A DNA stretch of 36,050 bases from a virus. Lineage: Duplodnaviria > Heunggongvirae > Uroviricota > Caudoviricetes. A model generated the notes under the pieces. The model saw only the letters and a program-made list of their open reading frames with translations, ran no database searches and was not told where the DNA came from. Where the stretch lies: positions 1 through 36,050 of the IMG/VR virus record IMGVR_UViG_2558860290_000008; one strand, written 5' to 3'. The first letter of the stretch is position 1; every line of letters starts with the position of its first letter. Position numbers and translations under genes: made by a program. This document shows positions 13,383-18,495 of the stretch, piece after piece.

Positions 13383-15004
13383 CAGGCCTGTCTCCCTAGC
13401 AGCTCCCAGATGTTCAGGGCTGAATTCATTGGCGCGTAGCTGATCATCACCGAGTCGGCAAGGTTTGGCGACCGGGTTCCATCAGGCTGTTTATCAATAA
13501 CGATTTTTCCCACACCATTAATGGAATAGGTCGGCTGCGAAAGCTCGATGATGAGTTTATCTTTGAGTGCCATGCTACTGCTGATTGAGATGATTTCGTC
13601 CGGGTTGTAAGCCATACCTTCAACCACGGCGCGCCAGGTATTCTGAAAAAGTTTACGTAACCGCCACCAGCTCTGGGCTTTGGCGTTAGCGAAGAAGTCC
13701 TTGTTCAGGCGGGCGGCCTGTCCGTTGTCACCGCGCACCGCTTCATCATCCGGATCAAATACCGCGCCACTACCTCGAAACGGTGTTGCGAGTATTGACG
13801 GTCGGCGCGCAGCGTTACGCAGTTCGTTGATAGCGCGTGCATCGCCGCGAACGCCAGCGCCCAGCCCGTCCTCATCAAAGCGAAACTCTTCGAGGTTGTC
13901 CTGTTCGCAAAAACCGAAGACCTTCTCGACGGACTGATAAATGTCGCTGCCCACACCGGACCATTCCCGCACATTTTCCAGGAGGAAGCCATGACGGGTG
14001 GAAAAGGCATTTTTGTCCCTGCCTTCATCAGCGACATCCATCGCGCCAAGTCGTTTGCCTGTTGGCTGGATACCCAGTTTGATATGCGCATCAACGGCAG
14101 CCTGTACCCATTCGGATGGAATCAGGACGCCTTCCGCTGATGCGCTGTAGTTCAGATCAAGTTCCTGTGCCACCACCACCGGATTATCGATTTTCTCGCA
14201 TTCCCTGCGATACCACTCTTCATCCTTGCGAGGATCATCCCGCCAGTGGAATGTGAATACCGGTATCTTCCCGCCGTGACGCTTCTGCGCGAACGGGTTC
14301 GCCATGCCGTTAACCGAACTCAGGTCGATACGGCAACGCGTCGTTTGTGACAACGCCGCATCAATCAGCAGAGGACGCTGAAGGAATGCAGCCTCATCAA
14401 CCAGATAAAGCGTGGTACGGTCACCACGACCAATATTATCGCCAGCCTCGCCTTTGATAACGGCACCAGTTTCAGGAAACTCAACACGCATATATGGCGC
14501 GTGCTTCTTCTCGCTCCACGAACCGCGAAACTCTACAGGTAGTGTTTCCACGAACTTGCGCGCCTTCCAGAACAATGCTTTCGGGTCACCGGTGCTGTCG
14601 ACGTATTCCTCTTTACGGGAGCCGAAACCGATAACCATTTCTTTGTTGAAGAGACAAAGCGAGCAGGCCAGTCCGATCGCGGTCCAACTGAGCCCCATTT
14701 CACGGGATTTTTCGGTAATACCATTCTCCCGATTACCCCAGCGTTCCATAATCCAGTGGATCCACTCCTCCTGCTTAGGGAAGAGTAAAAACGGAATGGT
14801 CACCGGCAGGCCATAATCAATATTACGCGGGTCCGTTGTCATGCCCCAGTCGATGATGAACTGAGCCGGGTTGGTCCGGTAAAACTGTTTTAGTGCTGGC
14901 AATATTTCAGGGTTCTGGCGAATGCGCTGTAAGCGTTCCATCCGCCATTCAAAAACCATCTGGTAATCAGGATGTTTAAAATCGAAGGGGAATGGTAACG
15001 GCAT
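13382..15004 (-). CDS. Terminase large subunit
   Basis: 540-aa ORF following the small terminase subunit, with an N-terminal ATPase-like region and a C-terminal nuclease-sized region; upstream of the portal gene. Confidence 0.8.
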
Positions 15005-15006
15005 AC

Positions 15007-15558
15007 TTAGCCCATCATTTTTCTATACGCCTCTGCAGCCTGCTCCGGCGTTAAGTTGGTAATTTCTGTTCTGACTGGTCCTCCGTCAGCACCAGTCACT
15101 TCATTTTTGACATTGTCTTTAAACGCCTGAACAGAAACATGACGCCCGAGCAACTCAAGGTTTTTAACCTTATCAGGCCATTTGATTTTCTTCAGGAGAG
15201 CAGCACTATCTGCTGATGCCATCTCGACGACATCCATTCCTGATAGCGTTGTACGCCACACCTTAGGCCAGTCTTTAATGGGCTTCAGTTCGCCATTGGC
15301 AAGCAGAATGTCAAGCACGTCCATCTGATCGATTTCAATAAGGCGATTAAGTACATATTCTGCATTAATACCAACAAGATCATTGCGTTGCGCTTTCAGT
15401 TCGGCGATTCTTAACTTGATGTCAGGTTTTGACAGGTTTTCGGATGCGGTACGGTTAGCTGTCTTTGCGCTGTACCCCGCCCGAATAGCCGCTTGCGTGG
15501 CGTTTAAATCGATGAGGTACTCGCGACAGAACATTTCTTGCTTGTCGGTGAGTGCCAT
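15007..15558 (-). CDS. Terminase small subunit
   Basis: 183-aa ORF with the N-terminus [30 protein letters not shown] (helix-turn-helix typical of small terminase subunits), directly upstream of the large subunit. Confidence 0.7.
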
Positions 15559-15582
15559 AGTTTTCTCTAGAGGATTTCTTTA

Positions 15583-15819
15583 ATGAACTCAAAGCAAATT
15601 TTTTACCGAAATACAGGTCATGATAATGAAACTTATATATTCCTGGACAAATTGGACAATGGCTCCTACCAAGTCAGGGCTGGTCATTCGTCACCTGTGA
15701 GCCATTTTGAATGGAAGGGTGATGAAACCATTCAGACAGTGGAAGAGTTTCTAGGTTCTAACCCATCATATACTGAACGTGTTCATCAACTAATTTCTGA
15801 GTTTGAAGCAGAATCGTAA
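15583..15819 (+). CDS. Hypothetical small protein (78 aa) on the opposite strand
   Basis: Plus-strand ORF with a GAGGA ribosome-binding site, AT-rich relative to its flanks. Its start codon is 24 bp from the small terminase start, oriented divergently. Confidence 0.5.
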   Translation: MNSKQIFYRNTGHDNETYIFLDKLDNGSYQVRAGHSSPVSHFEWKGDETIQTVEEFLGSNPSYTERVHQLISEFEAES

Positions 15820-16113
15820 TCACCACCCAAGCGACTCAACTGATATCTAGTTCATCATTACTAGGACTAAAAGTAGATTCCTGACATTGAGAACCTCTTT
15901 ATCCGCTTGTGGGGATATCAGTTAAGTTATCCCGTGTAGGGTATAAGCCATTGTCGAGACCACTCATTGAATGGCCTCTGCAATAACCGATGTCTTTCCA
16001 TCAGTCCGCCACCACAAAGAATCTTTTTTGCCATAAGGCAGGAGGTTCATCTTTCAGTGGCTGCCAGTGTTATTTCCCCACTTACTGGCTTGGGTTGTTT
16101 CGCTGTACTGCCG

Positions 16114-16656
16114 TTAATTGGTGAGTCCGGGTATTACGGTTTGCCCGTGCTGTTCAAGGCGTTCAATTCTAGCCAGCAGCTGTGGCTTCTTAATTTTTCC
16201 CCAGCGATTAAGCAAGCGGCCTGACATGCTGGCAACATCCTTCTCTTTCATGTACTCCAGCATTACGGCATTTCTCTCTTCTTCAAATTGACGATGACCA
16301 ACCTGAAGCATGGCGTACATCCAGTTGAATGCGTTGATGTAAGCAATTTTGATACGCATTGCTTCTTTTTTGGTGTAGGACATAACCAAAAGCATCAACC
16401 CATCCTTACGTAGCCGATAGAATTTTTGTGGCTTACCATTCTGTAACTCATTGTTTTTATAGCAAACCTCAAAATTGAGTTTTGTATCAAACTCTTCAGG
16501 ACAAGCAGCGATAGTTCTTTCTACATCACGCACAACGTTGTCATGTCGCTTACGAAATGCTTTCGCCACCATAAATGAATCGGTGACAGGGTCATTGTTG
16601 GTAATAAAAACCAGTTCTTTGAAATCAATGCCGTCAACGATAGTTGGATAATTCAT
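16114..16656 (-). CDS. rha: Rha-family phage regulatory protein
   Basis: N-terminal motifs (VTDSFMVAKAFRKRHDNVVRD ... KIAYINAFN) resemble the Rha family; located between the lysis and terminase genes as in P22-like phages. Confidence 0.6.
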   Translation of the reverse strand: MNYPTIVDGIDFKELVFITNNDPVTDSFMVAKAFRKRHDNVVRDVERTIAACPEEFDTKLNFEVCYKNNELQNGKPQKFYRLRKDGLMLLVMSYTKKEAMRIKIAYINAFNWMYAMLQVGHRQFEEERNAVMLEYMKEKDVASMSGRLLNRWGKIKKPQLLARIERLEQHGQTVIPGLTN

Positions 16657-16804
16657 CGGTAATTACCTTTTAGTGATGAACCTTGTCACACAGGATTCCG
16701 GCCCACAGAAAGGCACCGATAACCAAACCGGCATCCTCAAGGGTCATCCTGAAAGGCTCTGTGTTCATAAGTCGCGCGTGTGAAGCGCATTTACTGAGGA
16801 CATA

Positions 16805-18339: not shown

Positions 18340-18415
18340 TGGTGCTGGTTAACGGACTTGAACCGCTACCCATTCGCTTACAAGGCGACCGCTCTACCAT
18401 TGGAGCTAAACCAGC
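18340..18415 (-). tRNA. tRNA-Thr (anticodon UGU), 76 nt
   Basis: Hand-folded cloverleaf: 7-bp acceptor stem (GCUGGUU/AACCAGC), D arm GCUC/GAGC with a GG loop, anticodon loop CUUGUAA, T arm with TTCAAGT loop, discriminator A and encoded CCA. Confidence 0.7.
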
Positions 18416-18420
18416 ATATT

Positions 18421-18495
18421 TGGCGGGACAGCGTGGACTCGAACCACGATAAGAAGGTTAACAGCCTTCCGTAATGACCTTTATACGACTGACCC
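18421..18495 (-). tRNA. tRNA-Asn-like (anticodon GUU), 75 nt, with one acceptor-stem mismatch
   Basis: Hand-folded: anticodon stem GAAGG/CCUUC, loop CUGUUAA, T arm CGUGG-TTCGAGT-CCACG, encoded CCA. Acceptor stem has a U-U mismatch at 4:68 and the D stem is only 3 bp. Confidence 0.5.

Follow-up and report, generated by a model that had tools for sequence, protein, structure and literature searches.

A divergent small gene beside the small terminase gene of a lambdoid prophage is one allele of a hypervariable cargo slot

Results

A small gene runs against the late operon between terS and rha

The window (the whole stretch of DNA that we analysed, 36,050 nt, positions 1 to 36,050 of IMG/VR virus record IMGVR_UViG_2558860290_000008) is a lambdoid prophage whose late operon lies on the minus strand, in the order Q, tRNA-Asn and tRNA-Thr, holin, lysozyme, Rz, rha, terS, terL and portal. 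The two tRNA genes, tRNA-Thr(TGT) and tRNA-Asn(GTT), occupy 18340-18495 on the late strand between the Q antiterminator and holin genes, as they do in related E. coli prophages. Between rha and terS lies an opposite-strand gene of 78 codons, here called ORF78, with the following surroundings:

15007-15558, minus strand: terS, small terminase gene, 183 aa, Terminase_2 (PF03592, E 1.4e-39); left border of the slot described below
15559-15582, either strand: 24-bp divergent spacer, with the ribosome-binding sites of both ORF78 and terS inside it
15583-15819, plus strand: ORF78, the cargo gene, 78 aa, ATG at 15583, stop codon at 15817-15819
15559-15872, plus strand: cassette-specific DNA (spacer, ORF78 and a 53-bp tail), 38.2% GC
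16114-16656, minus strand: rha, 180 aa, Phage_pRha and ORF11CD3 (PF09669, PF10549; TIGR02681)

The homologues of terS in near-identical E. coli prophages carry the annotation terminase small subunit. The start codon of terS occupies 15556-15558 on the minus strand, and exactly 24 bp (15559-15582) separate it from that of ORF78, which has a Shine-Dalgarno sequence (GAGGA, 15570-15574) 8 nt 5' of its ATG and converges on rha across 294 bp (15820-16113) that hold no convincing ORF. These coordinates agree with the geometry given in a preliminary description of the locus (opposite strand, 24 bp from the terS start, converging on rha). The same description called the gene and the following 295 bp AT-rich, which holds for ORF78 and about 100 bp beyond but not for the remainder: the 555-bp span 15559-16113 has 42.0% GC compared to 49.3% for the window (lowest 8.5% of 555-nt windows), and the cassette-specific DNA, which deviates from the surrounding phage genes, falls in the lowest 1% of 314-nt windows, but low GC is limited to 15559-15927 and the right-hand 186 bp (15928-16113) are average, with 48.4%.

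ORF78 occupies a slot whose cargo is exchanged between conserved flanks

Scanning IMG/VR with terS yielded 65 loci having a recognisable terS start, and at 64 of them a divergent ORF begins 12-30 nt from the terS start codon. The slot ORFs of this census fall into 18-19 unrelated families: one is a DUF2158 family, others have weak matches to HEPN/HepS, DUF2441 or CxxCxxCC, several encode small membrane proteins, and most have no match. E. coli prophages with terS and rha-side flanks that are 94-99% identical to those of the window carry other genes (72, 90, 108 and 143 aa) at the same place and in the same orientation. In other cassette types, homology to the window breaks off at 15558-15578 on the left and resumes at 15873-15949 on the right; each has its own 12-30-nt spacer with both ribosome-binding sites, and cross-cassette homology ends at the terS start codon or within about 20 nt of it. 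We conclude that ORF78 is one allele of a hypervariable moron slot, divergent from the Terminase_2-type terS of lambdoid Enterobacteriaceae prophages. The general concept of the moron is reportedly due to Hendrix and colleagues. The preliminary description had read the layout as a moron in a cargo hotspot and had proposed related prophages as the comparison; both points were borne out, with some 20 cargo families at one slot, at the same position as pid of phage P22, and the segment replaced by other cargo between near-identical flanks.

Cassettes would most likely be exchanged through homologous recombination, with a conserved arm on either side: the near-invariant first ~90 nt of terS on the left and the linker block downstream of rha on the right. 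The slot is a concrete case of overlapping coding and regulatory constraints shaping the mosaic boundaries of phages, and it supplies a defined set of small prophage genes for screens for anti-phage or host-modulating activities.

The slot is shared with pid of P22 and BTP1

In a megablast search against phages, P22-like phages matched the window in two pieces that flank ORF78. On the left, ~15308-15558, antisense to terS codons 1-83, is 75% identical over 250 nt to P22 (L002:735-981, NC_002371.2 ~40744-40990), in a stretch that contains the pid promoter and 5'UTR; on the right, identity to P22 and BTP1 is ~92% over 15928-16285, which takes in the 3' end of rha and the adjoining 186 bp. The gene that both phages have between the two pieces is pid, on the same strand as ORF78 and thus opposite to the late operon. 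Judged by their flanks, the ORF78 locus and the pid moron of P22 and BTP1 are positional homologues: both genes are bordered on one side by the block after rha and on the other by the 5' sequence of a Terminase_2 terS, in one orientation, with homologous flanks that include the mapped promoter region. The two products are small acidic proteins of ~80 aa (pI 4.7-4.8) with unrelated sequences, Pid and ORF78 giving no BLASTP alignment at E <= 100 and only Pid matching phrog_16546 (1.8e-50).

The pid locus is well studied. Its transcription start site was mapped 174 nt upstream of the gene, at nt 40880 of NC_002371.2 (L002:845), to a weak constitutive promoter with -35 TTGCTT and -10 AATCCT, and a 'long 5'UTR' and a Rho-independent terminator were described (Wolput 2022; PMC8835761); pid exceeds 100 TPM in BTP1 lysogens (PMC7067206), and the effect of Pid requires its reading frame (PMC3573128). 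In our alignment, a frameshifted relic of a Terminase_2 terS runs antisense to the mapped promoter and to the greater part of the 174-nt 5'UTR in P22 and BTP1; in P22 it reads in frame for 25 residues before the frame is lost. The terS beside ORF78 is intact and functional, whereas in P22 the relic is followed by orf80, orf59c and the real gene 3; pid has a canonical Rho-independent terminator and ORF78 has none. The same relic is auto-annotated as a short 'terminase small subunit' in phages P6 and vB_ST415_1NRH, and among seven loci none has a Pid homologue adjoining an intact Terminase_2 terS, relics being present in all. The promoter of pid and its unusually long 5'UTR can be explained as a relic of a small terminase gene.

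Terminase goes unmentioned in both pid papers (PMC3573128; PMC8835761), the earlier of which noted that related phages have no insert or another insert at the pid site (Cenens 2013; PMC3573128). What the present comparison adds is the recognition of the slot, of the promoter region embedded in its border, and of the terminase origin of the pid promoter and 5'UTR, which makes the pid locus of P22 a single allele among about 20 interchangeable cargo genes at a widespread slot.

The ORF78 promoter probably lies antisense within terS

Two stretches come into question as promoter of ORF78:

15383-15418, plus strand: candidate promoter antisense within terS codons 47-59, by homology to the mapped pid promoter of P22; -35 TTGCGT at 15383-15388, 17-nt spacer, -10 GATTCT at 15406-15411, predicted start at ~15418
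15553-15561, plus strand: alternative candidate from our own scan, an extended -10 (TGcCATAGT) over the terS start codon, leader of ~15 nt

The 24-bp spacer between the start codons is too short to hold a promoter, except for the last bases of a possible -10, so the promoter has to be inside terS or overlap the terS start codon. A position inside terS is most likely, judging from the alignment with P22, in which the -35, -10 and start-site columns match those of the pid promoter without a gap; the predicted 5'UTR would be ~165 nt. The candidate agrees with the consensus at 6 of 12 positions, as does the mapped pid promoter, and a consensus scan for sigma-70 promoters found none on the plus strand of 15000-16700. 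Such scans carry no information at this locus, since even the promoter mapped in P22 scores just 6/12 and is not the top candidate in its own region. The hexamers TTGCG[T/C] and [G/A]AT[T/C]CT are present in all 47 unique terS 5' sequences, a conservation that constraint on the terS protein could explain. A role for the extended -10 at 15553-15561 is speculative; its last three bases are cassette-derived, and the equivalents read CATAAT in one ORF78 homologue locus (L012) and CATAAC in L011, and in P22 the 244 bp preceding pid showed no promoter activity (PMC8835761). The preliminary description's placement of the promoter inside the terminase coding sequence is therefore upheld by the short spacer and by homology to the pid promoter, not by a consensus match.

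Transcription of ORF78 is thus most likely independent of the late operon and directed against it. It would probably start at a weak sigma-70 promoter antisense in terS (~15383-15418), with a 5'UTR of ~165 nt, and the gene would be expressed during silence of the late operon, either in lysogens or in carrier-state cells that contain many copies of the phage. Where the prophage is intact, as here, the promoter of the cargo gene would then probably lie antisense inside an essential packaging gene.

The DNA between ORF78 and rha is composite

The preliminary description treated the ~295 bp after ORF78 as a single AT-rich, non-coding stretch. It does lack a convincing ORF, but it is not one unit, since its right-hand 186 bp are a linker that belongs to the rha or KilA-N side. 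The 294 bp (15820-16113) are composed of a cassette tail, a shared segment and a conserved lambdoid linker, with the following features:

15820-15872, plus strand: cassette-specific tail, 53 bp
15834-15847 and 15914-15927, plus strand: arms of a 14-nt inverted repeat, ACTCAACTGATATC / GATATCAGTTAAGT, enclosing 66 nt, no T-tract
15873-15927, either strand: segment common to three other cassette types (L004, L005, L008) and absent from P22
15928-16113, minus strand: lambdoid linker, seen in 183 phage records, that follows rha or KilA-N genes and belongs to the late transcript
15956-15978 and 15985-16006, minus strand: linker hairpins (z -4.8 and -3.7)
16024-16055, plus strand: terminator-like hairpin with T-rich tail in the linker, the only such plus-strand site

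No canonical intrinsic terminator was found after ORF78. What lies 3' of the gene is the hairpin without a T-tract at 15834-15927, which spans cassette tail and shared segment, has a fold z of only -1.1 and might form at the 3' end of the ORF78 transcript, and the weak terminator-like site at 16024-16055. More distant homologues of ORF78 have differing hairpins directly after the stop codon. A further inverted repeat of 16 nt (15655-15670 / 15940-15955, 88% complementary) connects the interior of ORF78 with the start of the linker block and may be due to chance.

The linker is conserved at 90-99% identity in the 183 phage records, which include HK97, Sf6, P22, CUS-3 and mEp235, while the head genes beside it are unrelated. 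Three phages, Sf6, Huey and mEpX1, have an insert of ~400 bp that interrupts the linker near the equivalent of 15984-15989 and includes, on the same strand, a gene for 126 aa (gp66 in Sf6; its label in Huey is 'anti-CRISPR protein'). P22 'orf25' and the small ORFs in 15927-16124 are probable annotation artefacts, as their frames are not kept between P22 and the window and the block is conserved as nucleotides.

This conservation raises the question of whether the stretch holds a structured RNA on the minus strand, which would belong to the late-mRNA leader separating rha from terS and not be a small RNA of its own. The linker folds more stably in the sense of the late mRNA than on the plus strand (z -5.5 versus -2.2; none of 100 shuffles was as stable), forms the two compact hairpins listed above, and has one stem pair varying among G-U, A-U and G-C, which suits the minus-strand RNA only, all within a block that stays constant amid unrelated head genes. 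On the other hand, no family in Rfam 15 matched either strand of 15300-16300 at E <= 1 in a covariance-model scan of the kind proposed in the preliminary description; the 19 unique linker sequences have few variable positions and too little variation for an assessment of covariation; the conservation could equally stem from a role as recombination linker; and Sf6, Huey and mEpX1, whose blocks are split by the insert, are all viable phages. We therefore regard a structured leader as unlikely, and retain the reading of the linker as the right arm for cassette exchange.

The 5' end of terS is constrained beyond its protein and survives as relics beside cargo genes

The left border of the slot is formed by one conserved block:

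15469-15558, either strand: first 30 codons of terS, near-invariant in nucleotides; left homology arm and 3' part of the presumed cargo 5'UTR

Among 59 unique terS genes, synonymous diversity was 0.04-0.08 at codons 11-30 compared to 0.16-0.47 elsewhere, and at codons 121-130, where the protein is equally conserved, it was 0.35. Codons 1-30 are thus under a constraint beyond the protein, be it as recombination arm, cargo 5'UTR or promoter, pac site or translation signals. Where a terS of another type has been swapped in, a relic of the old 5' end remains joined to the cargo gene, with a length of ~250 nt in P22 and BTP1, 43 nt before a 109-aa gene (L011) and 96 nt before an ORF78 homologue (L110), the functional terS of another type lying ~1 kb from the homologue in the last case. 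ORF78 homologues that were found independently of terS all lie 24-28 nt from this terS start or its relic, a count that leaves out a truncated copy (L108), a spurious one (L097) and two whose contigs end too early for the distance to be measured (L010, L013). The pattern of relics and linkage fits the terS block being the left recombination arm, a part of the cargo transcript, or both. Stacked cargo genes, with relics of two terS 5'-end types between them, are seen in L011:3186-4352 and L110:1497-3243 and suggest that repeated replacement of the head module leaves the old terS start and the adjoining cargo behind.

A bolder version, which we consider doubtful, is that the first ~90 nt of Terminase_2 terS are a dual-use 'launch pad', serving as promoter/5'UTR, recombination arm or both, and that the antisense cargo transcript damps terS in lysogens and carrier cells. 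If true, this would be an integron-like platform embedded in an essential packaging gene of lambdoid phages, and P22 pid, with its weak promoter and long 5'UTR, would preserve a fossil of it.

Alternatively, the antisense RNA might matter more than the protein, silencing leaky terS expression and packaging in lysogens or hindering late transcription, with the ORF as a passenger. The presumed 5'UTR overlaps ~140 nt of the terS 5' end, and both the suppressed synonymous variation at codons 11-30 and the persistence of the relic beside the cargo after terS replacement would agree with such a role. Yet ORF78 has its own ribosome-binding site and is under strong selection at the protein level (see below), the relic in P22 faces no functional terS although pid is expressed and its effect needs the Pid frame (PMC3573128), and relics of 43, 96 and ~250 nt would confine a common RNA element to the last 43 nt, so that we find an RNA-based function improbable.

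Headful phages often have their pac site in or near terS. An example in a P22-like E. coli prophage is cited in PMC9928086. The region could accordingly be a part of the pac site, a possibility raised in the preliminary description, with the terS 5' end conserved through terminase binding and ORF78 acting as a packaging accessory. The near-invariance of the first ~90 nt of terS and the strict linkage of the ORF78 family to this sequence would both be expected on this account, which is nevertheless to our mind improbable too: with at least 18 unrelated genes at this place, no specific cargo can be required for packaging, disrupted ORF78 alleles occur, and the conserved block persists as a relic in P22, in which pac is elsewhere. 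The pac site of P22 lies in its own gene 3. We keep to the reading of the terS 5' end as a recombination arm, a part of the cargo transcript, or both.

ORF78 is a real gene whose acidic product probably binds a partner

Comparison with homologues on other contigs gave dN values of 0.09-0.26 with saturated synonymous sites, and a dN/dS of 0.044 for the window against L012, the single pair for which dS could be estimated. Homologues at 63-79% identity keep the full length. A word-indexed protein search with ORF78 returned 12 clusters at 65-98% identity, and a full HMMER scan of 1.84 billion representatives returned ~10 small relatives of 64-111 aa with a common motif pattern; ~10 clusters, with identities as low as 31%, keep the length and the motifs. 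The remaining HMMER matches, P0018 among them, are repeat artefacts, and the sole match in species-representative genomes is a false positive within a 570-aa membrane protein. ORF78 is therefore a real gene under strong purifying selection.

The gene is rare. Its cassette is present in 12 of 5426 complete E. coli genomes, tblastn detected no ORF78 in 50,697 phage records, and the protein has no match in Pfam (E <= 0.1), PHROGs, NCBIfam or PADLOC and no PDB sequence match at E <= 1. Natural E. coli alleles that are frameshifted after residue 32 or 51, or truncated, exist (P0010, P0011, P0012 and H72 in NZ_AP045773.1), which indicates that the gene is dispensable for prophage upkeep, as expected of an accessory gene. 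While this rarity and the frameshifted alleles might have pointed to a chance ORF or a functionless, decaying remnant, that reading is effectively refuted by the selection analysis, and the conservation of length and motifs, the good ribosome-binding site and the confident predicted fold leave it extremely improbable.

The product of ORF78 has a mass of 9 kDa, is acidic (pI 4.8) and carries a net charge of -7. An AlphaFold2 model (pLDDT 81, pTM 0.71) predicts four strands and a C-terminal helical part:

residues 2-10, 16-23, 29-36 and 49-52: predicted strands
residues 53-59 and 61-77: predicted helices

In the model, this four-strand, one-helix fold may resemble PC4/PUR. The single-stranded nucleic acid-binding folds PC4, PUR and Whirly (5a4n, 3k44, 2gia; PC4-like protein of phage T5, 4bg7) share with it the four-strand sheet followed by a C-terminal helix; they show no sequence or profile similarity to ORF78 (Pfam, PDB sequences), and unlike them the ORF78 model has its charge of -7 concentrated in the C-terminal helix. 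Foldseek returned nothing significant for ORF78 among predicted viral structures, and neither ORF78 nor nine other slot cargo proteins matched a defence model in PADLOC-DB 2.0.

The protein would most likely bind and neutralise one macromolecular partner. By analogy with Tab (see below), this may tentatively be sought in a competing phage, which would make ORF78 a factor in superinfection exclusion or defence; a host regulator, in the way that Pid acts on the dgo operon, is a more doubtful candidate, and single-stranded nucleic acid, to which the model would point, an unlikely one. Taking the locus as a whole, we consider it probable that ORF78 is an independently transcribed cargo gene of the pid slot, with an antisense promoter in terS, an acidic product that binds a partner, and exchange through conserved arms; in this picture we infer the position of the promoter, expression in lysogens and the activity of the protein, whereas the comparisons above show that the gene is real and establish the slot with its limits, the diversity of its cargo and the homology of its flanks to the pid locus.

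Known accessory loci resemble the ORF78 slot in part

The closest parallel in layout is Tab of Pseudomonas phage JBD26, an 83-aa protein encoded on the opposite strand next to the small terminase gene, with its own promoter and expressed from the prophage in defence (PMC10884400). Like ORF78, tab is a small gene without a known family, on the strand opposite to the late operon and beside the small terminase gene; the defence activity of Tab has been demonstrated, whereas ORF78 is likened to it by size and position. Between ORF78 and terS there is no co-oriented late-operon gene that could be a partner of the anti-Tab type. The lipoprotein gene bor of lambda has an established promoter of its own and established expression in lysogens. 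Like ORF78, it is an opposite-strand accessory gene that has the lysis cassette on one side and head genes on the other, deviates in base composition and is patchy in relatives, but the ORF78 promoter is a predicted one and apparently lies inside an essential gene. The antiviral hotspots of P2-like phages and P4-like satellites have conserved flanks around variable cargo (Rousset 2022; PMC9122126). The terS slot likewise has conserved flanks and cargo exchanged between otherwise similar elements; it differs from these hotspots in that its cargo consists mostly of single small genes (60-190 aa), with no PADLOC match in the 10 examined, and in that its left arm lies within coding sequence.

Two of the larger cargo proteins from the same slot have sequence features of their own. 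A 182-aa protein (IMG/VR locus L029) has a spacing of R, S/T and E motifs (YRGE, TTD, ENEF) reminiscent of ADP-ribosyltransferases, and a 190-aa protein (L074/L062) weakly matches HEPN in Pfam (E 0.009) and structure 9oij of HepS (E 0.049), making both candidates for toxin or abortive-infection functions.
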